IMG/VR virus record: IMGVR_UViG_3300032268_000293
Span: 15,832 to 79,831 of that record
Strand: one strand, 5' to 3'
DNA from: a virus
Length of the DNA stretch: 64,000 nucleotides
The first letter of the stretch is position 1; each line of letters opens with the position of its first letter. Below, in pieces: positions 24,597 to 51,565 of the stretch. The notes beneath the pieces are model-generated. The model was not told where the DNA came from. It saw nothing but the letters and a program-made list of their open reading frames with translations, and searched no databases. A program made the translations under genes and the position numbers.

Positions 24597-24878
24597 TTAA
24601 CAATCCCATGCTTTTCTAGACCAATAATTTGCGCTAGTCTTATCATTAGTATTTCCCTGTCCAGCTGATCTTGCGCAGTAAGATTTTTTGCGAGCAGGAA
24701 TATGTTTTTTAATGGAAAGGTTTTTATCCCCAAAATTTACCTTTTGTGCTTTACCATCTCCGTCTGGGTCAACGTAAACCTTTGACTTTTTTACATCACC
24801 AGACATAGGTTTATTAAGTGTAACGTTCTTTCCCTGATATGTAGCTTCGTTTAACAAGTATTCTTTGAAGGGAATCAT
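24597..24878 (-). CDS. conserved T4-like protein (DUF6321-like) with capsid-targeting-like N-terminus
   Basis: MIPFKEYLLNE; KVNFGD...RKKSYCAR...YWSRKAW. Confidence 0.65.
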   Translation of the reverse strand: MIPFKEYLLNEATYQGKNVTLNKPMSGDVKKSKVYVDPDGDGKAQKVNFGDKNLSIKKHIPARKKSYCARSAGQGNTNDKTSANYWSRKAWDC

Positions 24879-27800
24879 TTCGTGAACCTCTTGTGTTGTA
24901 ATCTTGATTTTTCGATTTGACGAATTCTCGGAGCAACTCTACGTGCTAGTCTATCAACCAACGCTTTTCTAGTTTGCAAGAATCTCTCAACTCTTTCTTT
25001 TTCTGGTAATGTTGCTTTGTTTGGATCTTTACGGAGCATTCTGCGCTTGATCATTGATGTAGCCAAACGACGAGCACGCTTGTTTATTGTAGATTGATTT
25101 GATGTTTTTCTCAATGCGATTTGCGCACGAACCTCACGTTTTGATTTGGTTCTAGCAAAACGCTGTTTACGACGGATGCGTTCCATACGAGAGATCTCGA
25201 GAATGACAATCTTATCTTCTTTGAGTTTTGCTTCTTCTTCATCATCTTCGTAACCATCAGTATCTAATTCTTCACCAGTCTCGTCATCAACGATTGCTAT
25301 CTCATCGTCTTCATATGCGTCAATGATATGCTCTGGTTCTGACATTCCAGTAATTTCGTCTTCAAAATCATCGTCCTCGAAATCTTCTTCTTCACTTTCT
25401 TTCTCTTCTTCTTCAGTCATATGTCTTTTTTGCATTGCAGTAAAAGAAGACTTTTTATTAAGATCATCTAATTGAGAAATATTTTGAATACCAAGGAATC
25501 TCTTTATACTTTCGTAGGACATTTTTCCTGTGTCGCCTACCTTAAATTTATCATCCTCTTCGCAGCCACAATCTTCATCTAATTGAGATTCTTCTTTAAC
25601 TTGTTTCTTTTGCTCTGCTTCTTTTTTCTCACGTGCTTGACGTTCTTGTTTAGCAAGACGTGACATCTTCTTTAGGAAAGATGGTTTGTTGTAGTATGCA
25701 GTAGCCTCGCCAAGTTCTTCTCTTGACTGCAAATAATCTCTAACAGTAGTGATGTAATCTTGCGCTAGTGTAATTTTAGATTGAACCCACTCTGGCATAT
25801 TCTCATCATCTTCGATCATGTCGATCAAATCTTCGCAATTACGTAGAGTAGTTTGTAGTTGCGTGCGAGCCATTTGACCTTCATAGTCATACTCGCCTTT
25901 GTCGATTGTTTTTGCTGCTTCTTCTAGAATATCAAAGTCTTCTTTTAAACCAAACGCTGCGGCAACTTTCTTGTCGCCATGCTTAGTGCGCAGATAGTGA
26001 GAGATAGCGTGGTCTTTAGTTTTGAATTCAGAAGTATCTATAATCTTATGTTGAGTCTTGATTAATCCACGTAGAGACTTAATATCATGATTCTTCTTAA
26101 GAGAGTCGTACTCTGCCTTAATATCTTCATCGATCTCTTCAGCTTCTTCTTTAATGTTTGTTGGCTTGTCTTTATATACTGTACCAAGATGCTTTGCGCC
26201 AGACTTATGTAACGAATTACGTCCATTGGCATTCATGGTGTGGTTGACATCATAACCACCAGATTTATGCTTATACACTTCAATACCATCTAAGTTATCG
26301 CGATGTGTTTTAACTTTGTCAGTAGCATAAGAAACTGCTTGATCTAGTTTTTTGAATGGAGCATTTTCGCTTAGTTCAGTTTCTTCTCGCATCTGCTTGT
26401 ATTTATCGAGGAGATCTTTGTTCTTAGCATAATCTTTTGTTGGCATAGCATAACGAGCAGTCTTAGCATTATCTAAATGATACAGTGATTTTTTTGAGTC
26501 ACCTTTCATATGCGCAGCAACTGCCTTATCCATATGGTACTTAAAAGTGCCTTCTTCTAAGTCATCTTCTTTTGAAGCATTCTTAAAACGCAATTTATGT
26601 GCACGAATCTTTCTACCATGTTTGTCTAACTTAGTGTCAGAAGTCGAAACCTCATCATATCCCTCAGTTACTTTTTGTGGTAGTAATTTCTCGTCGTAGT
26701 TAATACCAGCTTCTCTTGCTGTTTGAAGCATGTTTTTTACAACTGAAAGATATTCAGCACGCATTGGTTTGTTTCTAATTTTTCTTAATGCATTATTAAC
26801 AAGCTGGTCAGCAGAAGAAGACTTCTCGACATCTGTAACACCAAGAGCATCAGCAATAATTCTTGCCACTTTTATTTTATCTGATGAACTAAACTTCATC
26901 TCTATTAGTTCTTTAAAAGTTTTCATAGATTCTTCCATGCCCTCTTCTTTTTCCATGTGATATTGTGCTCGAACTTGGTCAATATCGTGTATTGCGTGAT
27001 TGATATAATCTGCGTGGTGATGTAGAACACCGAGTTTAGCAAGATATTCTTGTGCTTTCTGAGCAGAAATGTTAAATTGCTCAAATTCTTCGTCTGTCAT
27101 CTCATCATTGCCAACTGCTTTATTTAAAATACCGTAATAATCATCAGTTGCTTTCAATGCATTTAAAATAGCAACTGGGTCTAAATCTTCTTGTTTAGTT
27201 AAATGATGAAAAGCATCCAACACTTGTGGATGCTGTAAATTTTTTGGTGTGTAGTTTTTATAAGAGAACTTTGTTGGCTCATCTGCTACTGTGTAATCCT
27301 CAACCAACGTCACATCGTGCAACCACTTACGATGTGTATTACCATCAGAATCAACGACAGTAAGATAATTACTACCTCTATTAAGTATTTCATATTTGTG
27401 ATCATTAGACTCAACGATCTGACCAACTTTAAACACTTCACCTCTATAATAGGACTCTCTCAACCAATCTGTTACTGTAACTTGTTCTTTTACTGCGTCA
27501 AGACCCATTGCTTGTCTCAACTCATTCATCAGTCTGCGACCATCAGCTGTGGTCAATGTGGTTGGAAGACCTTTCTTAAATGTATCAAAATCGCCTTTTT
27601 TAGCAGCATCACGCATTTTGGTACCAGACATTCCAGATGCGTCATCGCTATCTGGATCACGCTCTCCAGCCGAAACTACTTGTATGGTGTTGAAATTGAA
27701 CTCTTTACCGTTGTACTGATTCAACAGTTTTGTATATTCCATAACACGATCGCTTCCTGCGACCATGATAATGTCTTTGTATTTTTTGTTGAGTTCTTTG

Positions 27801-32060: not shown

Positions 32061-32089
32061 ATTATACCTTATGGGTTGTTCGGTGTCAA
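32061..32089 (-). promoter_or_regulatory. sigma70-type early promoter
   Basis: TTGACA-N17-TATAAT. Confidence 0.8.
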
Positions 32090-32094: not shown

Positions 32095-33444
32095 TTATCC
32101 GAAAAATTCGTCTAAACTCTGGGTTTCTTGCGTTTCGAAGTGTTCATCGAACATATTTCGCGAATTTTTAGCCAAGTTTGGATCGAAATTCGTTTTTGTA
32201 AGAAGTTCGTTTAGATACCCAGTTGGCTTTTGTTCAGCCAAATCAACATAATGCTGGGCAATACGCTTACGATCAAACTGCTGGATTAACTCATAGTTGT
32301 TGTTGACGATACGCATATACTCAGTCTCTGGCATATCGCAGTACTCAGCGATCTTTTCGCCATATTCTTTTGGTGTATAGGACTTCTTAAGCATACAGTA
32401 GTTGACCCCTGCTTTCAGAAGAACACCATTACCTTCTTCGTTGTTGGAAACGCCATAGTTCACAGCGATGGGCACAGTCCCGATACGCATAGCATCCACG
32501 ACAACCCGATTGAAATGCTCACCAAAAGTGTTAGACCAACTAGAATCAATAAGAAATCTAGAAGTTGATAAAATCTCGTCACGTTTTCCTCCAGAAATAA
32601 AACCAAGATACTCGAAGTTGCCTGAGTTTTCGGCATTTTCCCAAATACGTTTACCTTCCCTATCAGGTGTTACGTCTGGGTCATATTGCCTAGTAGCAAA
32701 ATAATCTTCTTTACATTTTTCCTTCGACATCATGTATGCTGCTTCAATACCATAACCACCAACAAGGGTTTTGACATTTTTCATGTAAGGTACTGCACGA
32801 ATAAGGTCGTCCACACGCTTCCAGCGTTTAAATGTCTGTATTGACAGGATTTTGTTCTCGCGACCAGCAAACTGCGGAGTAGGTGGTACGCCAGCGATAT
32901 CCTGAGGGTTTAAAATTAACGCTCGAGGTGTGGACATAAAATCAGCTGAGTCATACGCAGCAGGGTGTACGCATGCGAGACCAGCAAAATGTTTTTCAAA
33001 TATACTAATCCAAGGATAGAGTTTCTTTAGATTTGCGTCATGAATAATTACAATTTGTTTTGCTTTGACATTCTCAATCATTGGCAACCAATCTTTATAT
33101 TTCTCGGTGTCCTTGTTTTTAAAACCGAAAATAGATTGCCAAATAATAATATCGTGTTTGTTTGCGTCTTCAACAAATTTGTCGATGGACTCTTTTACTT
33201 TATAAGAATAATATGGTGCCATCCAACCATCACCTTGATGAACAGGATAACCAGAACCAATACCAATCTCCCATCCTTCCTTCAATTCAGAAGGAATCTC
33301 AACAGGACGAACTGTCTTTGTGCCTTTAAGGTAGGCAAAATTTACTTCATGACCAAGTTCTTTTAATCCTGCCATTAGATGTTCGCAGTGATTAATGATT
33401 CCACCAAAGTTGTTGAAGGTGTGCATTACCATTAAAATTCTCAT
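32095..33444 (-). CDS. GT-B fold glycosyltransferase, probably acting on DNA
   Basis: MRILMV...GGI N-terminus, FKRWKRVDDLIRAV, GEHFNRVVVDAM; in an operon with the TET/JBP gene. Confidence 0.85.
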   Translation of the reverse strand: MRILMVMHTFNNFGGIINHCEHLMAGLKELGHEVNFAYLKGTKTVRPVEIPSELKEGWEIGIGSGYPVHQGDGWMAPYYSYKVKESIDKFVEDANKHDIIIWQSIFGFKNKDTEKYKDWLPMIENVKAKQIVIIHDANLKKLYPWISIFEKHFAGLACVHPAAYDSADFMSTPRALILNPQDIAGVPPTPQFAGRENKILSIQTFKRWKRVDDLIRAVPYMKNVKTLVGGYGIEAAYMMSKEKCKEDYFATRQYDPDVTPDREGKRIWENAENSGNFEYLGFISGGKRDEILSTSRFLIDSSWSNTFGEHFNRVVVDAMRIGTVPIAVNYGVSNNEEGNGVLLKAGVNYCMLKKSYTPKEYGEKIAEYCDMPETEYMRIVNNNYELIQQFDRKRIAQHYVDLAEQKPTGYLNELLTKTNFDPNLAKNSRNMFDEHFETQETQSLDEFFG

Positions 33445-34271
33445 GTCCAAAGTCCTTGTCTAATTTTAATCAAACGAATCATCATGTCTTCGTCTTCTTG
33501 TTCATAGCGTTGCTCAATTTCAGTGCACAAGTCAAGTGCTTTTTTAGTTTCTTCTTTTTCTTCTTCGGTACGATCCTCAAAGTCAAGGAATCCTTTATCA
33601 GCCTCGCGACGTTTATCGCAAATAGCAGACCAACCAGATGCTTCGTGGGCATCAACACGTTTTGGTCGCTCAACTGTCCACCAAGTATATAGATCTAGAA
33701 TTTCTTGCGCTTTAATTGCTTGGTGAGTTAATTTACCAAAACCCTCATCATCGGGTTTGAGACCCCAATCTTCACCAGCTGTCAATTTACGTTGCCATTC
33801 TAGATTAGCAAGTCCGCACTCTGGATTGCGCCAAGTGCGCCAACGGAACCATCCTGTGGCATACCAAGGTGATTTAAACTTCTTGCGTGACTCTTCATCC
33901 CAAACAACATGCCACCACGCAAGTTCTACTTCCACAAAATCGACAAGTTCATTGAAGAGGCATGGTAGGAAGCGATTTCCGACATCACACCAGTTTCCTG
34001 GCTTAATGTCACGAGGGTGGGCAGTAAGAGAATGAGTGCGAGTAACCCAGCGATTATTGATGTAGTATTTAACAGAGTAAATCGCATCAGGAATGTATAG
34101 AATTGCTCCCTGAATCGCATCAAGACCTTCTTCGGCAAGCCAGTATCGAAATTTGTGTGCTTCTTTTGCAGCTGCATTCCAGTTTCTCCATCCCTTTGAT
34201 GTTTCTGCGTGTGGCTTTGGTGTCCCACGAAGCCAGTCGGCGAATTTAGTGCATGACCAATAGTTGCGCAT
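33441..34271 (-). CDS. Trp-rich conserved hypothetical protein
   Basis: 276 aa, coupled to the glycosyltransferase. Confidence 0.75.
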   Translation of the reverse strand: MRNYWSCTKFADWLRGTPKPHAETSKGWRNWNAAAKEAHKFRYWLAEEGLDAIQGAILYIPDAIYSVKYYINNRWVTRTHSLTAHPRDIKPGNWCDVGNRFLPCLFNELVDFVEVELAWWHVVWDEESRKKFKSPWYATGWFRWRTWRNPECGLANLEWQRKLTAGEDWGLKPDDEGFGKLTHQAIKAQEILDLYTWWTVERPKRVDAHEASGWSAICDKRREADKGFLDFEDRTEEEKEETKKALDLCTEIEQRYEQEDEDMMIRLIKIRQGLWT

Positions 34272-34274
34272 GTT

Positions 34275-34490
34275 TTACCTCTTTAAATTTATGTATTCTT
34301 TAAAATAATTATCAAATTTGTTAATTAAGCTCTCAATGTCACTGCTGTTTGTAAGATCCTCAACTATGCGCTTCTCATCCATATTAAACTGTTTCGCATA
34401 TCTTCTTGCGATACTTAGAAGAGTCGCAACTCTCATGTTAGGACTCTTCAAATTTAATGAAAGTTTTTGTCTTTCTTCACGAAAACTCAT
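34275..34490 (-). CDS. hypothetical protein
   Basis: 71 aa, coupled to the dioxygenase. Confidence 0.6.
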   Translation of the reverse strand: MSFREERQKLSLNLKSPNMRVATLLSIARRYAKQFNMDEKRIVEDLTNSSDIESLINKFDNYFKEYINLKR

Positions 34491-35800
34491 ACAAAGAATT
34501 CATCAATATCAGCCTTTACCGCATTGGGATGATACTTCGCCAAATCTTCTTCACCAAGTTTGTTGCGAAGGTAATCATACCACTCTTGTTCTTCCCACAT
34601 TCCTGGGGAAACACCATTCCATAGTTTTTTCCATAGAGGGTGTTCTTTGTTCAATCTACGAGACTCAACATATTCATATCTAGTATTTTCGTATTCGTAC
34701 GATCCAAGTTCTAACATGTTTTCACGCAAATAAACAACAAGCGAAACACGCTCAGAACCTTCTTCGCATACGATTGGTGTGTTACCATGAATAACCTCAT
34801 GATTGTTTACCAACAACAAATCTCCTGGACGAACATTTACGGCAATACGAATTTCAGGGAAAATCAAATAACCACCTGTGTATCTACCATCATTAGAAAG
34901 TGTCAACAGATTTGAAAGACCATCAGAAAAGTCGCCAGCATCACGATGAGCAGCAGTTCTAAATGTTTTATTTACTGTTACTGTAGTAAAAGGTGTCTCA
35001 GGAATAACAAATCTTGGATCAATTTTATCTGTTGCTACTTTCTGAGCGGAATATCTTGTTGGTAATAGTGTCTCAAAACCTCTAGCCAAATGCTGAAGGA
35101 AGGGATACGCCATCTTAAACTTCTCAAAATTATCACGAGTATATGTAGTCGCACGACCAAACGGAATACGAGGATAACGATCGAACCAACCTGCGATACC
35201 AGAATCAACTGGATTACCATAGGATGTTTCACTAACCATCTTCATAGTTTCTTGTGTTGATTCTGCTCTCTGCGCAGGTGTCAACGGAATAATACTGTCA
35301 ACCCACTCATCAAAATTAAATTTGTTGCGGAAACGTGAGATAACCCAAACATTATTCTTACCCGAACCCAATGCTTTCAAACGTGACTCTGGTGTTGGAT
35401 AACGTGAACGAATTTCTTCAATAACATCCTCATCTCCGAGTTTGGCTTTTTCTGCGTTGAGTAAAGCAAGCATTAGTTCTTCCTGATAATTTGTTACCCA
35501 CTCACGACCTTCGCCTGTTACCGATGTCCCTTCTTTGATACCAGAAGCAAGTCCACGATTTTCAGTACGAACAGCAGCCTCACGCAATCCAGCATATGCT
35601 GCGTCTTGTTCTTCCTTTGAGAAAAAGTTTTTTCTAAACTTAAAGGCAATATGCCTTTCGTCTGGATCAACTCCATAACCAGATGGAAGATAACAATCCG
35701 TATCCTCTTCAATCAAAATATCATAATTGGACTCATCAACAAACATACCAAGTAAATGTTCGCAGTCATGTTTTTGTTCTAGTTTAATTACACGTGTCAT
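34487..35800 (-). CDS. TET/JBP-family 2OG-Fe(II) 5-methylpyrimidine dioxygenase
   Basis: TPFTTVTVN..FRTAAHRDAGD (HxD), HEVIHGNTP (distal H), RVSLVVYLRE (2OG-binding R). Confidence 0.85.
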   Translation of the reverse strand: MTRVIKLEQKHDCEHLLGMFVDESNYDILIEEDTDCYLPSGYGVDPDERHIAFKFRKNFFSKEEQDAAYAGLREAAVRTENRGLASGIKEGTSVTGEGREWVTNYQEELMLALLNAEKAKLGDEDVIEEIRSRYPTPESRLKALGSGKNNVWVISRFRNKFNFDEWVDSIIPLTPAQRAESTQETMKMVSETSYGNPVDSGIAGWFDRYPRIPFGRATTYTRDNFEKFKMAYPFLQHLARGFETLLPTRYSAQKVATDKIDPRFVIPETPFTTVTVNKTFRTAAHRDAGDFSDGLSNLLTLSNDGRYTGGYLIFPEIRIAVNVRPGDLLLVNNHEVIHGNTPIVCEEGSERVSLVVYLRENMLELGSYEYENTRYEYVESRRLNKEHPLWKKLWNGVSPGMWEEQEWYDYLRNKLGEEDLAKYHPNAVKADIDEFFV

Positions 35801-37191
35801 ACTTTAAACCCTTCGAAATTGTTTTCTTCTATTCTTTTACCAAAAGAACTTTGATCAAATAGAGGAACATCATTATCAACTTTACCCATACCACCCAAAT
35901 TACTTTGAGCACTCATCTCAACATCATATAGACGCATATGTTTACGATCAACTCCAACAATAAATCTCTTATAGAAATTTGGATCAGAATAACGATTCTT
36001 CAACTGTTTCACCATAATCTGATTCAACTCCGCAAGTTCCTCTGTACTAATTAGAGCAATCATTAAGTCTGCTGTTGCTGGCAAACCGAAAGATTCAGAA
36101 GTATCTTCAAGACCAACATCAGTGTTACTATAACCAGAACGTGTAGTTTGTGTAGCAGAAACAATTGGCACTTTATACTCAACAGCCAAACCACGAAGTT
36201 CTTCTGCGATTGCTTTAATATATGTATAAGAGTTTACATTTCCACTCAGTTTCAAACGCTGACTTGCACAAATATTAATATAATCGATAAAGATAATGTC
36301 TGGCGTAAAGTCTTTCTTCAATCTCAACTCTTCAAGCAAAGCACGGAAATGACCAGCATGAGCAGAAGTGGTAGGATATTCTTTTACGACCAATTTACCA
36401 TTCGTCTTTTCTTTCAACTTCTCAACACGAGAATCAAAGACCCTACGCTCAACCATCTTCAATCCTTCCATAGAAAGATCAAGTAGGTTTGCGTCAATAC
36501 GTTCTGCAATCTTTTCCTCAGCCATCTCCATGGTTATGTATAAAACATTAACACCCTTCATCAACATAGACGAAGCAAAATGACACATTGCCAAAGATTT
36601 ACCAACACCAGTACCAGCAAGAATAATGTTCAGCGTTTTCTTACTGACTCCTCCGTTCGTGATTTTATTGAGAAGTTCAATGTCGAAAGGAATCTTCTCT
36701 TCAACCCTGTGATAAAAATCATAACGATCAGCAGCATTTTCAAGATAGTCATGACCAACATGATTATCAAATGAAACGGCAAGAGCATCGCTAAGAATAG
36801 AAACAATCGCATCTTGGTTACGGTTTTTATCTTTTCCATCAATTATTTTGATTGAACTGAGAATAGCATTATAAACTGCTTTATCTTTACAGAATTTTTC
36901 TGTTGATTCAACCAACCACTCCTCATTAGAATGTTCATCCGCAAAATCTTCAACAAGTTCGTTAATGTTTTTTACTTGTTCGTCAGTAACATCAGTTCTA
37001 TTACTTACTTCAATTTTAACAATATCTTTACTTGGAACCTTACCATACTTGTTAAAGAATTTATCAATTTCCTCAAAAACAATACGATCTGTTCTCTCAG
37101 TAAAATACTCAGGAACCAGAAAGGGCATAACCTTTCTGGAATATTCCTCATTAGAAATTAGATTTGAAAAAATCTGATTTTCAATTCTCAT
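35797..37191 (-). CDS. 41: replicative helicase gp41
   Basis: [21 protein letters not shown] and KQLKNRY motifs. Confidence 0.97.
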
Positions 37192-38239
37192 TCAATTCTT
37201 CCTCTAGTTCTTCAATTTCTTGCTCAACGTCACTACCATAATTATACTTTGATTTACAATATTTGTCAAGTTGAGTTAAGATATCCTCAGTGAAGAAATT
37301 AGAGGGATTGCTTGCAATGTTTTTACCGAATACTTTTCTACCATCATGAACCTCGATACGACCACCCTGCGCTTTCCAGATTCCTGCTTCAACAGCAAGA
37401 TCGGTTAGACCATGATGACGATCTAGACCTTTAGTGAAAGACAATTTTGTTTCAACCATAGATTTCTCTCTTGTGAAACGAGACTTCTCAAGTTTACACT
37501 TGATAATATTACCAACAACTTCAGTTCCGTCTTTATCTTGCGACTTAGAAAGGAACACGATTGTTGATGCTGCATATTTCAAGCCATCGCCACCACCCAT
37601 AACTTTAGTTGGAATGTAAGCACCAACTGCTGCGTAAGTATGATTAGTCACAACCATAGCAATATCGAGTTTAGCCAACTTCAAAGATAGCACCCTGAAA
37701 GCACCTCGAATCAACTGCGCACGAGTCATATCTCGTGTATCTTTCCCCTCAAGCGTATCTTCCATTTCTTTAGCAGTTGAAAGCATACCCAATGAATCAA
37801 GGAACAACATCAAAGGTGGGCGATCTTTCTTTGGTGTCTTTTCATAAGCATCTAGAATCTTAGATGCTTGAGTGCGGAATTCTTGAATCGTAGAAACAGG
37901 AACAATAACAAAACGCTTGGTGTCAATACCACGTTCCTGAAGCATGTCCTTCGTCAACGCACCTTCTGTTTCAAAGTAAACGACTCCAGCTTGTTCATTA
38001 GTTCGAAGAAAATTTCCCGCAATGCCAAGAGCATAAAAGGTTTTTCCTGTGGAAGACTCACCAGCCAAAGCTGTAACTTTGTTGCTAGGTAAACCACCAT
38101 AGATGCTACCACTGATAAGAGCATTAAAGGCATAAGAACCAGTATCGATAAAACTGCCAGTATCACCAACCACACCATCATCAGCCAATCCCGCATATTC
38201 ATTATCAAGTTCCTTTACAATATTTTTTAAAAAACTCAT
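37181..38239 (-). CDS. uvsX: RecA-like recombinase UvsX
   Basis: [18 protein letters not shown] and GGGDG motifs. Confidence 0.96.
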
Positions 38240-38448
38240 TCTTTTGTCTCCTCTTCATCTTGTTTCACATACTGAATCTCCTGCGCAATCATTGCCAAAT
38301 ATTCGACAGCGCAAACTAAACAATATGATAATTTTTCGTAACCAAATTCGGGCATGTTTACACGAAACACGTAGTCATCTCTAACTTCACCATGTTTCGG
38401 ACATACACACTTTGGTGGTTTTTCTAGTTGTATATTTTCAGTTTCCAT
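38236..38448 (-). CDS. small zinc-binding protein
   Basis: CPKH...CLVC. Confidence 0.6.
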
Positions 38449-38454
38449 AATAAG

Positions 38455-38483
38455 ATTATACCTCTTTTCTGTTTAAATGTAAA
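38455..38483 (-). promoter_or_regulatory. early promoter for the uvsX-41-TET-GT operon
   Basis: TTTACA-N17-TATAAT. Confidence 0.7.
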
Positions 38484-38487
38484 GTAA

Positions 38488-40968
38488 TCATGCGAAGAAT
38501 TCATCTAGATCGTTTTTCTCAACAATACTCCAGTCAATTGCCTCAAGAATTATTGAAAGTGGATCAAGAAACACCTTCTCAAACTGTTTATCATAATCTA
38601 TGTATTTATGTAGATTCAGCTCATTTGGTAAAGTACCAACAAACGAAATAATGTTTTCGTGTATTGTGTTTGGTTCACGCAAGTAAACGAATTTAATTTT
38701 ATCACCATTCTTAATCAATTGATATTTGTTTAAGAGATTCATTTCTTTCATGTAGTGATTATATAACAAAGCACCACGGACATGAATTGGCGTAGCCTTT
38801 TTATAGATTGTTGATGAAGATTTATAATCATTCAAGTCATTTACGCCACGTGGGAAAGCAATCTCTTCCACACTCATCGTATTAAATTTCTTTTGAAAGT
38901 CAAGAACGAACTTCCTTAGTTCTTTCTCATCACCACCCATAATCACTTTAATGGCATCTTTTAAAGTCTCACGAATAGTAGCAGGTGTTGACGACTTAAC
39001 CACCTCAAGACCCATAATCTTCATCTTGGGTTGCGCATACTGAACACCCTCAGAGTTATGGACATTGAGAACGTAGCGTTTCTTAGCAGTCCATATACCT
39101 TTGTCGGCGATAGACTCACGCTTCATAATCATTTTTTGATCATAAGCATTCTGTCTTCGAGCAAGTTCTTGATAACATTTATCGATGAATGGTTGAACCT
39201 TGTCTTCGCATATCTTGTCGATTGTAACTATTACTTTTTGGGTGTCTTTTTGTTGTTCTTCTGTGAAGATAGAATCAACAAGCGGAGCCATATTAATATA
39301 CACAGAGTCAGTATCAACAGCAATAACATAGTCTGCTCCTTCAGTCTTTAACAATTTGTTGAAATATTCATTGAGTCTATCGTGGATCCAACGAATAGAA
39401 AGTTGACCAGAAAGTGTAATACCTTCTGATAATCGTTTATCGTAGTATCGGAAATATTGATTAGCCAAAGCACCATAAGCAGAGTTAAGAGCAATCTTTA
39501 ATGCCATCTGTAGGTTGTTGAGTCTAGATATCTCATTAGTCAATGCATGATTCTTTGTGTTCTCATATTCCTGCTGCACTTTCAGCATCTGCTTCTTTGA
39601 CTTGCTTCGATCAGTATACATTTTCTCCATCAACTCAGGGAGGAAACCACGTACGTCTTTACGATAACACCATCCATTCGCAGAAACAGCAAGTCCATTA
39701 TTATCTGGCTCTTCTTTCAGAAACAAATCTACTCCACCAGAAACGCTTTTAACAATAGTCTCGGGAGACATATTATACTGCATAATCAAATGCGGATACA
39801 GACTATTCAAGTCAAACGAAACTACCCACTTATGAAATCCAATCAGAGGATCTTTAACATACGCACCTTCAATTGCTGTGTCTTTAGAGTTACCAGTCTT
39901 TGGTGGTATAACAATCTTTTTTGCACGCAAATGATTGTAGATTATAGTATCCCACATGCGAACCTGCGAAAACACATCTTCGTAGTTCACCTTTGCGTTA
40001 TAAGCCATAACAATCGCCAACTCGACAAGTTTCATCTTGTCTTCAAGCATGTCAACAAGAGAGGTGTCATGAATATTATAGTCAACGAAATCACGCCAGT
40101 GGTTTGTATAGAAATCTTTGAAAGAATCTCCTGGGTTTTCTTTCTTACGCTCACCAAGTTCCACAAAAGCAATATGGTCAAGACGATACGATTCCTGCAT
40201 CGTATAAGTAAACTTCTTATAGAGATCGATGTAGTCAAGAACACTTACGCCAATAATATCATACGCAATTTCTTTATTGCCTTTGATGTAGATTTCTCTG
40301 CGTGTGATCATATTCCAAGGCGACATCTTCTTAGAGTCATCTTCGCCGAGAACGTTGTGAATACGTTGAATCAGATATGGGATATCGAACAGATTGATGT
40401 TCCAACCTGTAACAATATCTGGTGTGTTCTTACGCCAAAATGTTAAGAACTCGCGAAGCAGTTTTGCTTCCGAGTCACAGTGAATGTAGAAAGGACATTG
40501 ACCATCGTAAGGTTTGCGACCAAACACAGTTAGACGTTTGGTCTTGTTGTCCATCAACGAGATTAGAAGTATTTCCTCATTCGCCGTTTCGATGTTAGGA
40601 AAACCATCCTCAGTCTCAGTTTCAATATCAATAGAGAAACACCTAATCTTGTCCTTGTCGTAAACAATTTCTGACGGATAATTATCCGAGATGTATTGGT
40701 AAGCATAATTTAAATTTCCATAAATTTTAAAACCCTCAACACCCTCGTACTTCTCGATAAAGTCTCGTGTGTCTTTAATATTACCTGGAGAGAATGAATA
40801 CACAACTTCGCCATCAAGTGTGCGCATCATCTCTTTTGAATTTTTATGTTTTGATGTTACGTAGAGAGTTGGGTGGAAATCTATCTTCTCTTTAAATGTC
40901 TCACCATTCTCATAACCTCGAACGAGAATTTTATTCCCGATAGAACAAATGTTCGTATAAAACTGCAT
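38488..40968 (-). CDS. 43: family B DNA polymerase gp43
   Basis: DIET exonuclease motif, FDLNSLYP, KIALNSAYG, DTDS, KKRY. Confidence 0.98.
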   Translation of the reverse strand: MQFYTNICSIGNKILVRGYENGETFKEKIDFHPTLYVTSKHKNSKEMMRTLDGEVVYSFSPGNIKDTRDFIEKYEGVEGFKIYGNLNYAYQYISDNYPSEIVYDKDKIRCFSIDIETETEDGFPNIETANEEILLISLMDNKTKRLTVFGRKPYDGQCPFYIHCDSEAKLLREFLTFWRKNTPDIVTGWNINLFDIPYLIQRIHNVLGEDDSKKMSPWNMITRREIYIKGNKEIAYDIIGVSVLDYIDLYKKFTYTMQESYRLDHIAFVELGERKKENPGDSFKDFYTNHWRDFVDYNIHDTSLVDMLEDKMKLVELAIVMAYNAKVNYEDVFSQVRMWDTIIYNHLRAKKIVIPPKTGNSKDTAIEGAYVKDPLIGFHKWVVSFDLNSLYPHLIMQYNMSPETIVKSVSGGVDLFLKEEPDNNGLAVSANGWCYRKDVRGFLPELMEKMYTDRSKSKKQMLKVQQEYENTKNHALTNEISRLNNLQMALKIALNSAYGALANQYFRYYDKRLSEGITLSGQLSIRWIHDRLNEYFNKLLKTEGADYVIAVDTDSVYINMAPLVDSIFTEEQQKDTQKVIVTIDKICEDKVQPFIDKCYQELARRQNAYDQKMIMKRESIADKGIWTAKKRYVLNVHNSEGVQYAQPKMKIMGLEVVKSSTPATIRETLKDAIKVIMGGDEKELRKFVLDFQKKFNTMSVEEIAFPRGVNDLNDYKSSSTIYKKATPIHVRGALLYNHYMKEMNLLNKYQLIKNGDKIKFVYLREPNTIHENIISFVGTLPNELNLHKYIDYDKQFEKVFLDPLSIILEAIDWSIVEKNDLDEFFA

Positions 40969-45158: not shown

Positions 45159-45584
45159 TTACTTGTTTACGTTTTTTTTCCCAATATTATATTTTGGTAC
45201 TAGTTCCCATTCATCTTTCTCTTTAAAAGAAAGAACCTTTATTTGCGAAAGTGATGCTTCTGGTCTCGATTCTTTCGATTTTGTTACAGAAAGCAAACCC
45301 CAATCTTGCAGTAATACTGCAACTGTGTTTCTTCGCTCAATATCGCTGCTAGTTAGATTAGACTCTTTTCCGTCTAAAGCAAATAACTCTTTGAAATGCA
45401 CAATATAGTATCTACCTTGTTTGTGCAAAATATGACAGGATTGGTAAAGTTTCTTTTCTTTTCTTGACGCAATACCAATACGTGTCAATGTCTCCTTAAT
45501 TTTAAGGAAGTTATCTGGTTCGGGTAATGTCACCTCGAGCATGCTGTCTGGAGTCCAGTCATAGTAAACAGTCTCAACAGTCAT
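45159..45584 (-). CDS. regA: translational repressor RegA
   Basis: FLKIKETLTRIGIAS...LYQSCHILHKQGRYYIVHFKELF. Confidence 0.96.
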   Translation of the reverse strand: MTVETVYYDWTPDSMLEVTLPEPDNFLKIKETLTRIGIASRKEKKLYQSCHILHKQGRYYIVHFKELFALDGKESNLTSSDIERRNTVAVLLQDWGLLSVTKSKESRPEASLSQIKVLSFKEKDEWELVPKYNIGKKNVNK

Positions 45585-45958
45585 AATTTTCCACCTTTTT
45601 CGAATTTTTGTTTTATCATATTAAGTTGTTCTTCGGATAATATGGAAAGAGCAACTTTTGCCTTTTCTCTACTATAATTATAGTAGTTCATTACCATAGT
45701 CAAATCGTCTCCAGTTTCCAGCTTGTGCCATTTAGAGAATCGCTTTTTCTTGGTAATACTATTTAGCAAATAACGAAATTGCCACTTTTTTGGTATATAG
45801 TGGCGAACATTCATCTCATTTGCTTGTAGGCATGAGTCAACAAAAAATGAAAGACCTTTATTTACGATGTATGGATCGTAAAATTTTTGAAAAGATGGAT
45901 CGTCCGATAAATCGTCCTTTGTAATATTAATACAATTTAGATAGTCAAATGGCGACAT
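45581..45958 (-). CDS. 62: clamp loader small subunit gp62
   Basis: Sequence features and 45-44-62-regA synteny. Confidence 0.9.
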   Translation of the reverse strand: MSPFDYLNCINITKDDLSDDPSFQKFYDPYIVNKGLSFFVDSCLQANEMNVRHYIPKKWQFRYLLNSITKKKRFSKWHKLETGDDLTMVMNYYNYSREKAKVALSILSEEQLNMIKQKFEKGGKL

Positions 45959-45965
45959 CGCACCC

Positions 45966-46904
45966 TCACTTAAACTTACAGCCGACCATAATTTCAGTCA
46001 TTGCTGCGATATTATTAAGTTCTGGGTTTGCGACAAATGCTGCTTTGTATTGATAATCTGCTAAAATCAAAATAAGTTTTGGTACTGAACTTGCGTCCAT
46101 AAAATCAACTGCATTGTCGTAAAGAGTCTTAAACAACTGAGAGGTGTCAATATCAGAATTTTTAGCAATCCATTTGCGTGTGTTTGCGAAATCCTTATCT
46201 TTTAGATAACCAATGAGTTCTTTAAAAGAGTCATCAGAAAGATTGATAAGAATACCAGTGTCGATTCGACCATTCACCGAATAACGCTGAAGTTCGTTCA
46301 GAACTCTACGGAAATCGGGGAAATATGTCTCAACAAGTTTCGCGACTGCTTTACTATCTACATCAGCAACACCCTCTTGTGAGAGGATATCCATTACTCT
46401 GCGATAAAACGCAGCAGCAACTTTTGGTTTTTCTGCTGAGGGGATTTTAAATTCAATTACTGAACATCTTGACCAGAGTGGTTCGATGATTTTGTGCTTG
46501 AAGTTGCAGGTGAAGATAAATCGACAATTGTTGGAAAATTCTTCGATAAAAGAGCGCAGGGCTGCTTGGTTTGCTGTTGTGAGATTGTCTGCTTCGTCAA
46601 GGATGACAACTTTCGTTGATGATTCGAGACTAACAGACGAGGCAAAGCTCTTGATTTTTGTACGTAGGATGTCAATTCCGTTCTCCTCAGATCCATTAAT
46701 AAACATATATTCAGCACCGACTTCTCGGCACAATGCTTTTGCTATGGTAGTTTTACCTACACCTGCTCCACCTGAAAATAGGAACATAGGTAATTCACCA
46801 CCAGCAACAAAATTCTTAAATGTTTCTTTTAGTGATTCTGGAAGAATACACTCATCAATCGTTTGTGGGCGATACTTCTCTACCCAAAGAAAATGGTCTT
46901 TCAT
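45966..46904 (-). CDS. 44: clamp loader large subunit gp44
   Basis: WVEKYRP, GVGKTT, LDEAD, SRC. Confidence 0.96.
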   Translation of the reverse strand: MKDHFLWVEKYRPQTIDECILPESLKETFKNFVAGGELPMFLFSGGAGVGKTTIAKALCREVGAEYMFINGSEENGIDILRTKIKSFASSVSLESSTKVVILDEADNLTTANQAALRSFIEEFSNNCRFIFTCNFKHKIIEPLWSRCSVIEFKIPSAEKPKVAAAFYRRVMDILSQEGVADVDSKAVAKLVETYFPDFRRVLNELQRYSVNGRIDTGILINLSDDSFKELIGYLKDKDFANTRKWIAKNSDIDTSQLFKTLYDNAVDFMDASSVPKLILILADYQYKAAFVANPELNNIAAMTEIMVGCKFK

Positions 46905-46924: not shown

Positions 46925-47590
46925 TTATTCAGCAGTTGAGCCAGTCTCAACAGCAACGTAATATGCTAGTTCTGCGCTTGTGTTCTTAAAACGACAAATC
47001 TTCATTTTAGCAATAGTAACGTCATATGCTCCAGGAAGCATCTTAAGGTTTTCAACTTTCAGATATGCTGTAAAATTTCTATCAGTTGTACCAAGATCAA
47101 TTTCGAATTTATTACTTAGCGGATTCTTGTTGTCGAATACACGTGCAGTAACATTAGCACCATCACCAGAAATAGAAACATCGTTTACTTTCAAAATACC
47201 AGCAGAACGGATGACATGGTCTAGATCGCCTGATGTAAGTTTAAAAGAAATGTTTGTGTCATCCTCTGGGAATGCGATAGATTTGGTAGGTGCTTTCAAT
47301 GTATTAGTGTCTGCTGCTTTGTACTTGATAACATTCTTACCTTGTTTAACTTCGACGATGTCGTTATTAAATGTAAACTCTGGGTCTTCGAAGAGTGAAA
47401 CAACACCGAGGAATTCGTTTACATCATAGATACCAAAATCTTGTGGAAAAGATTCCTTTACAGTTGCTTCAGCAAAAACATTATTACCTTCGTTCTTTGT
47501 CGAAAGTTTATTACCCTGCTTAATTAGCAGATTCATGTTGATGGAGGCGAAGTTCTTCACGAGAGTTTGTGTTTCTTTAGTCAGTTTCAT
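46925..47590 (-). CDS. 45: sliding clamp gp45
   Basis: KNFASIN, FGIYDVNEFL, NLKMLPGAY, YYVAVE. Confidence 0.94.
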   Translation of the reverse strand: MKLTKETQTLVKNFASINMNLLIKQGNKLSTKNEGNNVFAEATVKESFPQDFGIYDVNEFLGVVSLFEDPEFTFNNDIVEVKQGKNVIKYKAADTNTLKAPTKSIAFPEDDTNISFKLTSGDLDHVIRSAGILKVNDVSISGDGANVTARVFDNKNPLSNKFEIDLGTTDRNFTAYLKVENLKMLPGAYDVTIAKMKICRFKNTSAELAYYVAVETGSTAE

Positions 47591-47619: not shown

Positions 47620-47648
47620 ATTATACCGCAATTGTGTGTTTGTGTCAA
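47620..47648 (-). promoter_or_regulatory. early promoter for 45-44-62-regA
   Basis: TTGACA-N17-TATAAT. Confidence 0.85.
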
Positions 47649-48211
47649 ATAAAATTTCTACTGTTCGCGGAATGCTTTACACTCCAAGGAACATCGAAAA
47701 CGAAAGTGACTCTGTCAACAGAATCAATGTTTAATGCTGAATGTTGTTTCTTGTTATCAAACCAAAAGAACGTTCCTGGTTCAATTATATGAACTTCGCC
47801 ATCAACTTCATAACGATATCTTCCCTGAAGAGAAAGATGAAATCTATCTTTGTTGAGATAGTATGTTCCATCGTCTATGTGTTGACCAACACCATCTCCT
47901 GGTTTTAATCTGAAGAATGCTGCTCTAGCAGTTTGAGAAATACCCTGATCCCTCAACCAAAGTCGTATTTCTCTATACTTCTTGTAGAGTGGTGTCTTGT
48001 ATAAACCCTCCACATTTTTTGGATTCTGTCCTTCTGGAACAACAGCCATAACCAGAGGTAAGAACCCATATGGATTTTTATCACCACCAATATTTTTATA
48101 CGTGCTGACTGCTTGCCAATCTTGTTCATTAGCAAGAACCTTGTCTCGAATTTTACTTATGTCGAGATTCCTGTAAATAAATCTAAAATTTGATTCCAAA
48201 CAAAACTCCAA
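47645..48211 (-). CDS. Asp/Asn beta-hydroxylase-like 2OG-Fe(II) oxygenase
   Basis: QHID, RFHLSL, WFDNKKQHSA and RVTFVFD motifs. Confidence 0.8.
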   Translation of the reverse strand: MEFCLESNFRFIYRNLDISKIRDKVLANEQDWQAVSTYKNIGGDKNPYGFLPLVMAVVPEGQNPKNVEGLYKTPLYKKYREIRLWLRDQGISQTARAAFFRLKPGDGVGQHIDDGTYYLNKDRFHLSLQGRYRYEVDGEVHIIEPGTFFWFDNKKQHSALNIDSVDRVTFVFDVPWSVKHSANSRNFI

Positions 48212-48216
48212 ACAGT

Positions 48217-48555
48217 TTACTCAATACTATATTTAACATCGTGTTCATACAAAAACATCAGACAACACATCGCATGAGCCAAGTGATGCATACCAGATTC
48301 TGGGTCAATCTGTTCACCCTCTTTATATGACCACAGATGTCTTTGCATTGCGTCAAAGTATCTACGTTTTGAATCAGGAACATTCTTCCAATTATCTGGC
48401 TCATATTTCTCTGCGCCAAATGTAAGAACATCAACAGTAGCTCTCAAAGCAAGTGGAGGAAGCAAACCATATTGTGGTTTACCACCATCAAATTTACGAC
48501 CACCTGTGGTGGCATTTTGAGACTTCTTAACTTCTGATTGTAGTGGTATTGCCAT
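48217..48555 (-). CDS. DUF5664 dATP/dGTP diphosphohydrolase-like protein
   Basis: KFDGGK...GAEKY..DNW...RH...DPESGMHHLAHA. Confidence 0.85.
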   Translation of the reverse strand: MAIPLQSEVKKSQNATTGGRKFDGGKPQYGLLPPLALRATVDVLTFGAEKYEPDNWKNVPDSKRRYFDAMQRHLWSYKEGEQIDPESGMHHLAHAMCCLMFLYEHDVKYSIE

Positions 48556-48577
48556 ATCTTTCTCCAAATGAATGCAC

Positions 48578-48605
48578 AAATGAGCACTCCGAAGAATGCT
48601 CATTT
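48578..48605 (-). terminator. cUUCGg hairpin (terminator or stability element)
   Basis: AAATGAGCATTC-TTCG-GAGTGCTCATTT. Confidence 0.65.
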
Positions 48606-48618
48606 ATAACTCACTTAA

Positions 48619-48876
48619 TTAACGAGTAAATGCAGATGCACCAAGCATCTTAGTAGCCAAAGCAACCATTGCTCGTGATGGCTTGCCGAGACGGTACTTA
48701 ACTACACGCTCGCCTGTGCTCAAAGTCTTTGGATTGCTGTAGACGCAATAACCTTGTTCGCGCAAGTAATGAACAGCACGTGCAGGATTCTTGAAACCAA
48801 AAGTTCCAGTAATCTGTTTTGCTGTCAATTCTTTACCACCTTCTAGACATTGAATCAATTTTGCTGTCTTAGTCAT
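48619..48876 (-). CDS. winged-HTH-like small protein
   Basis: LTAKQI...V..LREQGY.VYSN...YRLG. Confidence 0.65.
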   Translation of the reverse strand: MTKTAKLIQCLEGGKELTAKQITGTFGFKNPARAVHYLREQGYCVYSNPKTLSTGERVVKYRLGKPSRAMVALATKMLGASAFTR

Positions 48877-48961
48877 AAATAACTCCATAAAAAAATTCAC
48901 CAATACGAAATGGGAAAATGGGATGCGCTGGTGAACACGCATCCCTCCCACAATTTAGAGA

Positions 48962-49336
48962 TTAAGAGTTAGCAACTTCTTGAATGGAAGTAACGATATC
49001 CGCTACTTCTTGGTCGTACTCAACAGCGACGTCAGAGTCGTCGATGATTTTCTCAAGACGAGTACGCTCATCAGTTGTTGCTTTCTTCGCCTTAGCAGTT
49101 GTTGCTTGAGGCATAGGAATCTGATAGACTCCACGAGAAACTTTATTTGGACCAGTCAACCAGTTGGGGAAACCAACCTTATCACCACCAGCATCACGTT
49201 TCTCATTGAGAACCCAGTAAAGGGACTCAATCTGTTTACGAGTGGCAGTACCAGTCTTAGCGATAGATGGGTCTTCTTTAAGAATAGCATCAACGAAACG
49301 CTTTTGGGCTTTGGTTAAATCAGAATATTTCAACAT
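48962..49336 (-). CDS. hypothetical protein
   Basis: First ORF after the promoter at 49373. Confidence 0.7.
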   Translation of the reverse strand: MLKYSDLTKAQKRFVDAILKEDPSIAKTGTATRKQIESLYWVLNEKRDAGGDKVGFPNWLTGPNKVSRGVYQIPMPQATTAKAKKATTDERTRLEKIIDDSDVAVEYDQEVADIVTSIQEVANS

Positions 49337-49372
49337 AATAATTTCCTTTCGGTTTTCAAGTTTACAATCAAT

Positions 49373-49401
49373 ATTATACTATAATTTACTATTTTTGTCA
49401 A
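49373..49401 (-). promoter_or_regulatory. early promoter
   Basis: TTGACA-N17-TATAAT. Confidence 0.85.
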
Positions 49402-49408
49402 ACACTTT

Positions 49409-50560
49409 TTAGGACGGGATCTCACCATCTACAGATTGTTCGGTTACATCCTGAACAGGTGCGGGTCCCACCTCCGCATTTGGGTCTGCCGAAACTTTGT
49501 CGAACAGATCCAAAAACGCATCTTTCGTCAACGGATCGAAACGATTGATAGCAAGATTCACTGACTTACGCTTGTCTTTGTAGATCGAAAAGTTCTTAAC
49601 GATATGAACCAAACGACGAGTCGTAATCACTTCATCAACACCACCATCCTCGAACGTGCGACGAATAGCATCTGCCCATTTAACGAGAGTAGCAGCAAAC
49701 TCGCCATCAAGGCAGTTATACTTCTGCATCAGATTCGTGACAATCTTCGTCTCAATCTTAGCGGAAGGATAATCTTGTTCAAATACAACAGCGAATCGCT
49801 CCAAGAATGCTTCGTTCAACACGTTGGTGCCGATATAGCGACCATCGTCTGAACCCTTACCCTTGGTGTTCGCAGTTGCGAAAATATTGAATCCTGCTTG
49901 AGGATAAACAATTTCATTCTTGGCTTTGATGTAGTAGGGTTTACCTTCAAGAATACCCTGCAAGCACATCAGCAAGTTGGCTGAACCAGCATCAATCTCA
50001 TCAACGAGAATAGGAATACCACGACGCATAGCAACAACCATCGGACCATCTTCAACGACAACGTTACCATCGATCAGAGTCTTAGACGCAATCAGTTTAT
50101 CTTCGTCATCAGTGCTGTTCAAGTTCACACGGATGAGAGGAATCTTATGCTTTGCGCAAATCTGCTCAATCATAGTTGACTTACCGTTACCAGTCGGACC
50201 AGTCACATAGACAGGGTGGAACAGGCGACTAGTGATAATCTTGTCGAGATCGGAGTGATTACCCCACGCAACGTAAGAAGGATCGACAAGGGGAGCAGCA
50301 ACTTCTGCTTCAGTTACATAGACAGGTTTACGCACATCACTCTCAATTTCTTGCGGAACAATTTTAGCAACAGCACCACCACCAGCGATAGCATAAAGAC
50401 CACGACCAACTTTATTGTTCATGAGCCAAGTAGGATATTTTGCGGTACCGAGAGCATCCATCGTGCTCATAATTTGCTGTCGACTCACAACACCTGACGA
50501 CTGAACATCAGGAAACATTTCGAACAGTTTGGTTTCAAAGACTTGCTGATTCATAATCAC
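49409..50560 (-). CDS. MoxR/CobS-like AAA+ ATPase
   Basis: GPTGNGKS, VDEID, ATANTKG, NEAFLERF. Confidence 0.92.
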   Translation of the reverse strand: MIMNQQVFETKLFEMFPDVQSSGVVSRQQIMSTMDALGTAKYPTWLMNNKVGRGLYAIAGGGAVAKIVPQEIESDVRKPVYVTEAEVAAPLVDPSYVAWGNHSDLDKIITSRLFHPVYVTGPTGNGKSTMIEQICAKHKIPLIRVNLNSTDDEDKLIASKTLIDGNVVVEDGPMVVAMRRGIPILVDEIDAGSANLLMCLQGILEGKPYYIKAKNEIVYPQAGFNIFATANTKGKGSDDGRYIGTNVLNEAFLERFAVVFEQDYPSAKIETKIVTNLMQKYNCLDGEFAATLVKWADAIRRTFEDGGVDEVITTRRLVHIVKNFSIYKDKRKSVNLAINRFDPLTKDAFLDLFDKVSADPNAEVGPAPVQDVTEQSVDGEIPS

Positions 50561-50581
50561 CTTTCATCATAATATAGATCA

Positions 50582-50610
50582 ATTATACAATAATTCTCAA
50601 TTAATGTCAA
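50582..50610 (-). promoter_or_regulatory. early promoter
   Basis: TTGACA-N17-TATAAT. Confidence 0.85.
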
Positions 50611-50615
50611 ACAGT

Positions 50616-51080
50616 TTACCAAGAAGATTGGTAATAAAAATCTGACTTTTCGAACGCAGGGTCGCTGAGGATTTTCTTAAAACGATCAACAGTAAACTGA
50701 ATATCACCCATGTAAAATTCATCATACTCAGTTGAACCGAAGAAAAACCCACTGCGAGTTGGCATCAATTCAATTGCTTGTTTCGGCTCAGCGATAATTT
50801 GCTCACAGAGTTTCAACAACTCCTGCAGTTGCTCACGTGAAACATGATATTCGCCACAGTCATCTGTGCCATTCTGCACGTTGTCAACAAACCACTGATG
50901 AATCGCATTTGCTTTGCGCCAGTAGGCAACACGGAAAGTTACTTCCTGAGCACCATAATCACCATCCTCATCGCCTTCAACACCGAACAGTTCGTTGATA
51001 GAATTGATTCGCTGGGAATCTTTCTCATCAAAATAACGACTCATGTATTTTTTGGCTGACAAGTACATATCCAAACCCAT
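50616..51080 (-). CDS. conserved phage protein
   Basis: MGLDMYL...YWRKANAIHQWF...GFFFGS...YYQSSW. Confidence 0.8.
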   Translation of the reverse strand: MGLDMYLSAKKYMSRYFDEKDSQRINSINELFGVEGDEDGDYGAQEVTFRVAYWRKANAIHQWFVDNVQNGTDDCGEYHVSREQLQELLKLCEQIIAEPKQAIELMPTRSGFFFGSTEYDEFYMGDIQFTVDRFKKILSDPAFEKSDFYYQSSW

Positions 51081-51091
51081 AGCAATTCTCC

Positions 51092-51466: not shown

Positions 51467-51499
51467 TTTTTCAGTTCCATTTTCAATCATCATAGAATA

Positions 51500-51565
51500 A
51501 TTATACGTCCAAACCGAATATTTGTCAAGCAATTCGAAAAATAACCCTACAAGTCGTAGGGGATT
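51500..51565 (-). promoter_or_regulatory. early promoter with upstream palindrome
   Basis: TTGACA-N17-TATAAT at 51500-51528; palindrome at 51540-51565. Confidence 0.8.

Follow-up and report, generated by a model that had tools for sequence, protein, structure and literature searches.

In bacteriophage T4, several proteins bind the sliding clamp gp45 through a short peptide. The end of the DNA polymerase gp43 (889-EKASLDFLFG-898) mediates the binding to gp45 (PMC6212786), and the tails of gp43, gp55 and gp33 are interchangeable gp45-binding epitopes that compete for the clamp (PMC2988020). For T4 ligase, the peptide lies in an internal loop (EPEGLDFLFD), whose binding to gp45 was characterized by a crystal structure and by isothermal titration calorimetry, with a Kd of ~10 µM (PMC6212786). 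The T4 alpha-glucosyltransferase also binds to and co-purifies with gp45 (Sommer et al. 2004; re-confirmed in PMC13216743). The subject of this analysis is a 64,000-nucleotide stretch of viral DNA (IMG/VR record IMGVR_UViG_3300032268_000293, positions 15,832 to 79,831), in which a T4-type gp43, a TET/JBP-type dioxygenase (TET) and a glycosyltransferase (GT) end in nearly the same residues. This stretch, referred to below as the window, makes up the right-hand 64 kb of a viral contig of 79,831 bases, and nearly all of its genes lie on the minus strand. An initial annotation had proposed that both modifying enzymes are loaded onto the phage's own clamp by this shared tail. It had pointed to the docking of T4 gp43, gp55 and gp33 on gp45 by a short C-terminal peptide, as well as the gp45 interaction of the T4 alpha-glucosyltransferase, and both points are borne out by the papers cited above.

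The other system to be compared is the post-replicative pathway of phages that combine a TET/JBP-type oxygenase (5mYOX) with a GT. The locus described here has the same enzyme pair and, to judge from its genes, would have the same chemistry. The papers on these phage enzymes note neighbouring clamp, gp45 and polymerase genes, and in their assays the enzymes, TET as well as GT, carried C-terminal His tags and no clamp was present (PMC8256090; bioRxiv 2023.12.21.572611; PMC13229309). Since such tags would mask a C-terminal motif and the clamp was omitted, the published activity on duplex DNA may be understated. The 5mYOX papers make no mention of a clamp-binding tail, and a ParB-like activator is described there for another subclass; the tail found here would be an alternative, clamp-based way of holding a 5mYOX on DNA. 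Full-text literature searches found no paper that links a clamp-binding motif to phage TET/5mYOX enzymes or to DNA glycosyltransferases. The concept has precedents in the contacts of T4 alpha-glucosyltransferase and T4 ligase with gp45 and in the eukaryotic PIP-box enzymes.

Three Proteins with a Common C-Terminus

The three proteins, all encoded on the minus strand, end in ...EKNDLDEFFA (gp43), ...VKADIDEFFV (TET) and ...ETQSLDEFFG (GT). A search of all six frames, in the window as well as in the complete contig, found the tetrapeptide DEFF only three times, and each time it stands one residue ahead of the stop codon of one of these genes. When the ending was relaxed to [DE][FWY][FWY], no other open reading frame (ORF) of at least 40 amino acids (aa) was found to carry it, save one plus-strand frame of 59 codons that is probably not a gene. 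The initial observations that the three ends are almost identical, and that no other ORF of the window shares them, were thereby confirmed.

Based on the amino acid frequencies of the contig, 1.4e-4 genes are expected to have [LI]DEFF at that offset, and the probability of finding at least three is ~5e-13, so chance was rejected as an explanation. Among 6,903 gene pairs, five identical residues out of the terminal seven were seen only for gp43 with GT and for gp43 with TET. Recent copying of DNA between the genes was rejected as well: the synonymous codons of the three tails differ (CTA/ATT/TTA, GAT/GAC, TTC/TTT and GCA/GTA/GGA), which indicates that the likeness was selected at the protein level.

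Comparison with the T4 Epitope

The gp43 tail of the window, EKNDLDEFFA, aligns position for position with the T4 gp43 tail EKASLDFLFG; the T4 sequence was taken from PMC6212786, as the phmmer alignment of the window protein to RB69 gp43 ended short of the tail. The leucine at -5 and the Phe-Phe pair are invariant in 33 unique relatives of this polymerase. Compared with the T4/RB69 tails of gp43, gp55 and gp33 and with the T4 ligase loop (RB69 clamp-peptide entry 1b8h), the tails found here are alike in being short hydrophobic and acidic peptides on a flexible linker. The two groups have an L-D-x-(F/L)-F core in common, which is located at or near the C-terminus, except in T4 ligase; the core reads LDFLF in T4, whereas it reads LDEFF here. 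The sequence and genomic features expected of a T4-type epitope were found, namely a core motif near the C-terminus, a variable unstructured linker ahead of it, and gp45 together with its loader gp44/62 in the same genome. Taken together, the shared tails, with the general form (S/T/D)-L-(D/E)-x-F-F-(G/A), are most probably the version of the T4 gp45-binding epitope used by this lineage. The difference lies in the proteins that carry it: the published T4 clamp ligands with this motif include no base-modifying enzymes, whereas here it is found on TET/JBP and GT-B and, in relatives, on TAGT and Dam as well.

The tails match only the h-x-x-a-a half of the PIP box. The canonical motif, Qxx[LIM]xx[FY][FY], begins with glutamine, whereas the tails have lysine (polymerase and TET) or threonine (GT) at the first position. 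The motif thus resembles a PIP box in its logic without being a canonical one. In eukaryotes, PIP-box clients of PCNA such as DNMT1 modify DNA behind the replication fork. By analogy, the logic would be the same here, an h-x-x-aromatic-aromatic peptide docking a modifying enzyme on a clamp, but the clamp family and the enzymes differ and the origin is independent.

The T4 alpha-glucosyltransferase offers a more direct comparison. It is a GT-B enzyme like the GT of the window and its structure (1y6f) is among the matches of the GT model, but its association with the phage clamp is physical, whereas that of the GT is proposed from sequence. For the T4 enzyme, there is no report of a motif in common with gp43; it modifies 5-hydroxymethylcytosine made pre-replicatively, in a phage that has no dioxygenase. 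It was also found that the T4 enzyme still bound gp45 when a His tag was attached to its C-terminus (PMC13216743). Its binding thus does not require an unblocked C-terminal tail of the polymerase type.

Conservation of the Tail in Related Viruses

Using TET and GT as queries, 131 IMG/VR loci with 51-96% identity were fetched. The tail, written as (S/T/D)-L-(D/E)-x-(F/L/M)-F-(G/A), was present in 53/53 polymerases, 68/68 GTs and ~108/124 TETs of these loci; the clamp would evidently accept FF, LF and MF. The loci contain 5,031 ORFs of at least 60 aa, 235 of which end in the motif, and 226 of these are gp43, TET or GT. The remaining nine are one Dam-type D12 adenine methyltransferase, five TAGT glycosyltransferases and an unknown protein of 189 aa that is present in three copies. 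When the TET and GT sequences were anchored on the motif, the entropy of the linker (positions -12 to -6) was 2-3.2 bits, and that of Leu -5 and Phe -1 was at most 0.18 bits. Such a conserved core behind a variable linker is typical of short linear motifs.

The tail could also be followed over a wider range of TET proteins. It lies within the last 12 residues in 75 of 84 unique homologues. A profile search of 1.84 billion representatives returned 1,929 TET relatives, and among the best 150 of these, all sequences that reach the end of the profile carry the motif or a near variant. Distant forms of ~300 aa have no tail, so that the tail follows the full-length sub-family. In a clade with ~40% identity to the TET of the window, the tail is labile (...SLEDFFA, ...TLEDYFA, ...LGLEQTF, ...LGLEPAHQE). 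Where it has decayed, as in loci L188 and L191 (LGLEQTF, LGLEPAHQE), the adjoining TAGT retains ...NNLDSFFA or ...NNLEEFFG. That one enzyme of the module keeps its tail may hint at a TET-GT complex that is docked through one partner. In a 90%-complete genome (G006), all three proteins have a tail: ...SSLEDFFS on the polymerase, ...TLEDYFA on TET and ...TLDSFFE on the TAGT. A search for related loci with a distant tailed TET (P0023) found none; the same search with the tail-less P0017 gave loci.

Neither gp55 nor gp33 was found in the scanned part of the window (47645-55986), and a tblastn search of the whole contig with the gp55 of Stenotrophomonas phage DLP_6 gave no match. In a complete relative (G001, 165 kb), gp55 was identified (phrog_234, E 1e-61) and ends in KKKPAKKKTKN-NLESFLG-DENGS. 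The gp55 proteins of DLP_6 and of four more complete relatives are built alike: a basic linker leads into (S/N/D)L(E/D)xF(F/L), and an acidic extension follows. A protein known from T4 as a clamp binder thus carries the lineage's version of the motif. When G001 was scanned with the relaxed motif, only the polymerase, TET, GT, gp55 and a baseplate hub protein were found.

The last of these (PF12322; G001 24723-25433, which is L133:5723-6433, minus strand) ends in IDSFF, and similar 233-aa ORFs end in MENFFV in DLP_6 (135667-136368) and in LKDFFL in Caulobacter phage Cr30 (133694-134395). The (I/M/L)xxFF end of the hub protein was considered as a genuine tail and rejected as a coincidental look-alike, since in G001 these residues fall inside the Pfam fold.

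Cultured Phages and Natural Controls

Several cultured T4-like phages have the same arrangement. In DLP_6, the polymerase (...ATLDSFFA), TET (...ATLGDFFV) and a TAGT (...DLSSFFN) carry the tail. C48C1 has it on the polymerase (...ATLEDFFG) and on TET (...ISLEEFFV). The Methylophilales phage Melnitz has ...TTLEDFFG on the polymerase and ...NLNDFLGE on TET, and its C5-methyltransferase is without a tail. In Cr30, the polymerase ends in ...ADLSSLFD, a TAGT-like protein in ...SDLSKLF and TET in ...GATLF. When the whole genomes of DLP_6 and Cr30 were scanned, the proteins bearing the motif were the polymerase, TET (in DLP_6) or the TAGT, and the baseplate-hub-like ORF, with no others except a 69-aa ORF of Cr30, which is probably spurious. 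Adjoining the TAGT-like and TET genes of Cr30 (L142 9027-10256) is a gene for an amino acid:DNA transferase (PF18724, E 1e-52), whose end (...TDKWFKVL) is no clear tail; hypermodification in Cr30 may yield a more complex base.

Phages with a tail-less TET serve as natural controls. These are the Pelagibacter phage HTVC112P (302 aa), the Nonlabens phage P12024L (288 aa) and the Synechococcus phage S-CBWM1. A search of S-CBWM1 found no T4-type PolB; for HTVC112P and P12024L, the lack of a T4-type replisome and clamp is assumed from their small genomes (~32-36 kb).

Three further observations were made in these phages. In HTVC112P (L143 3009-4543), a ParB-like gene lies directly upstream of the short tail-less TET, which is the published arrangement of ParB-dependent 5mYOX enzymes; a 5mYOX may be held on DNA either by a ParB partner or by a clamp tail. 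In P12024L (L144 5445-6080), a DNA methyltransferase next to the tail-less TET ends in QSQQTLF, somewhat like the bacterial beta-clamp motif QL[SD]LF. A TAGT glycosyltransferase of S-CBWM1 (L146 5207-6061) ends in HELEDLLP even though the genome gave no T4-type PolB, and this end is possibly a motif for a different clamp.

The initial annotation expected that close TET and GT homologues keep the tail and that the motif is not common at unrelated C-termini. Both expectations held, the latter in the scans of the window, the contig, the related loci, G001 and DLP_6/Cr30 alike.

The Modifying Enzymes and Their Substrate

AlphaFold models were built on alignments of natural relatives, with 46 sequences for TET (model A1, mean predicted local distance difference test score (pLDDT) 80) and 31 sequences for GT (model A2, mean pLDDT 87). 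The TET model has a TET-like double-stranded beta-helix, and its best fold matches are TET2, CcTet and NgTET1. The iron triad HxD...H (H285, D287 and H338) and the arginine that binds 2-oxoglutarate (2OG), R351, are invariant. The GT model shows the two Rossmann domains of the GT-B fold and matches BshA, PimA and HepE, besides the T4 alpha-glucosyltransferase (E 3e-10). Translation of GT probably begins at the ATG at 33444. The tail is located past the last confident helix in both models, with pLDDT values of ~47-51 (~48 for TET residues 431-437). In GT, the last ordered helix stops at residue 438 and is followed by a coil (439-445) and then by a short low-confidence helix over LDEFF.

No C5-methyltransferase (PF00145) was found in this contig (G000) or in the complete relatives G001, G002, G004 and G005; control genomes gave matches. 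Since the complete relatives are without this enzyme, thymine is a likelier substrate than 5-methylcytosine, and the substrate of the dioxygenase would most probably be thymine. According to one survey, only ~6% of such pathways have a C5-methyltransferase (PMC13229309), and another puts the share at 20-30%. ParB-independent, GT-associated 5mYOX enzymes are thymine dioxygenases in the published surveys, where 5-hydroxymethyluracil (5hmU) is the predicted product (PMC8256090; bioRxiv 2023.12.21.572611; PMC13229309). The linkage of GT to TET in one operon and their shared tail suggest that the acceptor of GT is DNA carrying 5hmU or 5-hydroxymethylcytosine. The final product is likely a glycosylated 5hmU, similar to base J.

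Proposed Mechanism and Alternatives

A mechanism can be proposed in which gp44/62 would load gp45 at the primer-template junctions of replicating phage DNA, and the clamps would stay behind as the fork moves on. The polymerase, and then TET and GT, would dock by the shared tail in the hydrophobic pockets of the clamp. The dioxygenase would in this way be held on new duplex, where it would oxidise a 5-methylpyrimidine, most probably thymine to 5hmU. GT, held in the same manner, would add a sugar to give a base-J-like product, and both enzymes would slide with the clamp. Translational coupling links their genes to uvsX and gp41, and the enzymes would therefore appear together with the replisome. 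On the basis of the tails and gene order, modification is probably coupled to replication. That docking also provides discrimination between self and non-self is a tentative idea, for which the odds are judged to be somewhat below even.

The broader form of this proposal is that T4-like phages use their own sliding clamp as an addressing system for post-replicative hypermodification, a view that is likewise offered with some reserve. It would have three elements. At least four enzyme folds (TET/JBP, GT-B, TAGT and Dam) would each have gained a portable polymerase-type tail on their own. Oxidation and glycosylation of thymine would be limited to DNA that bears the phage clamp, which would distinguish self from non-self without sequence specificity. 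Small phages without such a clamp would use a ParB-type CTPase clamp as the partner of their 5mYOX.

Several results weigh against this interpretation. In T4, glucosylation ratios were found not to depend mainly on the contact between the alpha-glucosyltransferase and gp45 (PMC13216743), and docking on the clamp may thus be of modest physiological importance. The tail is decayed or altered in some TETs (NLMEMDL, LGDEWFA, LGLEQTF and LGLEPAHQE), so certain lineages can do without it on this enzyme. No motif-bearing gp33-like protein was seen in the complete relative G001. The argument for thymine is the absence of a PF00145 match. The initial annotation had further suggested a survey for TET and GT tails that co-vary with the tail of their own gp43. 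While the survey shows that the tail is kept, co-variation is weak within the clade: compared with shuffled pairs and uncorrected for phylogeny, the tail identity within the same genome gave p = 0.13 for gp43-TET, p = 0.03 for gp43-GT and p = 0.0003 for TET-GT. As the co-variation with the polymerase is not significant, the argument relies on conservation of the shared motif, not on co-evolution.

The first alternative accepts that the tails bind gp45, and therefore overlaps with clamp addressing at the binding step, but holds that the selected role is regulatory competition on the clamp and not the targeting of new DNA. TET, GT, the polymerase and gp55 might compete for the three pockets and so time late transcription and replication against modification; in another variant, the clamp only raises processivity on any DNA that bears it. 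The same motif on gp55 speaks for this alternative, and so do the T4 tails, which are interchangeable and compete for gp45 (PMC2988020), and the finding that clamp binding by the T4 alpha-glucosyltransferase hardly alters the alpha/beta glucosylation ratio (PMC13216743). Nevertheless, a motif placed specifically on modifying enzymes of at least four unrelated folds is explained most simply as substrate delivery, and the regulatory role is considered unlikely.

Another possibility is that the tails dock on a different common partner, such as the host beta-clamp, the single-stranded DNA-binding protein gp32 or another hub of the replisome. Short acidic-aromatic tails do occur on several replisome proteins, and the beta-clamp motif QL[SD]LF is loosely similar. 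However, the gp43 tail is positionally homologous to a T4 tail whose complex with gp45 is known from biochemistry and structure, and gp55, a known gp45 ligand, has the motif. Moreover, phages that lack a T4-type polymerase and clamp would still encounter the host beta-clamp, yet their TETs do not have the tail. This explanation is thus regarded as very unlikely. Least probable of all is that the tail is no docking motif but a C-terminal degron, a signal for stability or solubility, or a remnant of DNA copying between neighbours: hydrophobic C-terminal peptides can serve as protease tags and the three genes lie within 9 kb, yet their tail codons differ, the tail is still found at ~40% protein identity and also occurs on unrelated folds, and homology to the characterized clamp epitope accounts for it fully.

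Genomic Context

The tailed genes are surrounded by a T4-type replication module, in which gp45, gp44, gp62, RegA, an exonuclease, gp43, UvsX and gp41 were recognized by Pfam and PHROG searches (Table 1). TET and GT belong to a unit with the order uvsX-gp41-TET-orf71-orf276-GT, whose stop/start junctions are -4, -11, -4, -4, +3 and -10 nucleotides (nt). Promoter-like sites were defined by the sigma70 consensus (TTGACA, 17 nt, TATAAT). After the perfect match within uvsX, the next one comes only past GT. Given the tight junctions with uvsX and gp41 and the promoter-like sites upstream, TET and GT would be co-expressed with replisome genes.

Two conserved genes of the unit, orf71 and orf276, are possibly accessory factors of the modification pathway. 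For orf71, which has no tail, Pfam, PHROG and PDB gave no match. The product of orf276 is conserved, with 13 unique homologues among the related loci; it has no Pfam, PHROG or PDB match, and a protein atlas contains it only in unnamed viral clusters. It was considered as a divergent TAGT, which was rejected based on an hhalign probability of 0.3% and the absence of a sequence relative in PDB. Directly upstream of gp45 lies a gene (47645-48211, minus strand) for a 188-aa cupin or Asp-Arg-hydroxylase-like protein (PF05118) without a tail, which is a possible second 2OG-type oxygenase of the replication module.

Table 1. Features of the window, ordered by position, and motif-bearing proteins of related loci (last four rows).
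Feature	Position	Strand	Match or remark
Promoter-like site, sigma70 consensus, 12/12	32061-32089	-	just past GT, ahead of orf239; consensus match only
GT, GT-B (GT4-like, Glycos_transf_1) glycosyltransferase, 451 aa	32095-33450	-	PF00534, 39.5 bits (cut-off 26.4)
GT tail LDEFFG	32098-32115	-	C-terminal
orf276, Trp-rich, function not assigned	33441-34271	-	between TET and GT; no tail
orf71, small ORF, function not assigned	34275-34490	-	start shares 4 nt with TET stop
TET/JBP (5mYOX) Fe(II)/2OG DNA dioxygenase, 437 aa	34487-35800	-	PF12851, 80.2 bits (cut-off 34.9)
TET tail IDEFFV	34490-34507	-	C-terminal
gp41, DnaB-type replicative helicase	35797-37191	-	PF03796; stop shares 4 nt with TET start (ATGA junction)
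UvsX, RecA-type recombinase	37181-38239	-	PF00154; first large gene of the unit
Promoter-like site, sigma70 consensus, 12/12	37241-37269	-	within uvsX, ahead of gp41-TET-GT; consensus match only
Promoter-like site, sigma70 consensus, 11/12	38455-38483	-	consensus match only
gp43, family-B DNA polymerase, 826 aa	38488-40968	-	PF00136 + PF03104; best PDB matches RB69/T4 gp43, E 5e-135
gp43 tail LDEFFA	38491-38508	-	C-terminal, candidate clamp-binding
Clamp loader gp44 + gp62	45966-46904 + 45581-45958 (together 45581-46904)	-	gp44 PF21328, PF00004; gp62 PF16790
gp45 sliding clamp, proposed docking platform	46925-47590	-	PF09116 + PF02916; T4/RB69 gp45 (1czd, 1b77), E ~1e-24, full length
Dam-type D12 methyltransferase	L036:7110-7985		...NLDDFF
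TAGT-family glycosyltransferase	L074:12047-12844		...DLEEFFN
TAGT-family glycosyltransferase	L077:6547-7335		...TLESFFG
189-aa unknown protein	L044:16139-16708		TLDHMFV

Implications

Phage pathways that combine TET/JBP enzymes with glycosyltransferases are under active biochemical study, and the rationale for post-replicative modification has been called a mystery (PMC13229309). A post-replicative oxidase that acts on ordinary thymine has to find the right DNA at the right time, and the tail offers a concrete and cheap hypothesis for how this is done. With it, base modification would join replication and transcription among the tasks of the gp45 toolbelt. The same arrangement in the cultured phages DLP_6, Cr30 and Melnitz makes the idea testable in vivo. 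If true, clamp addressing would answer why and how phages can afford to hypermodify their DNA after rather than before replication.

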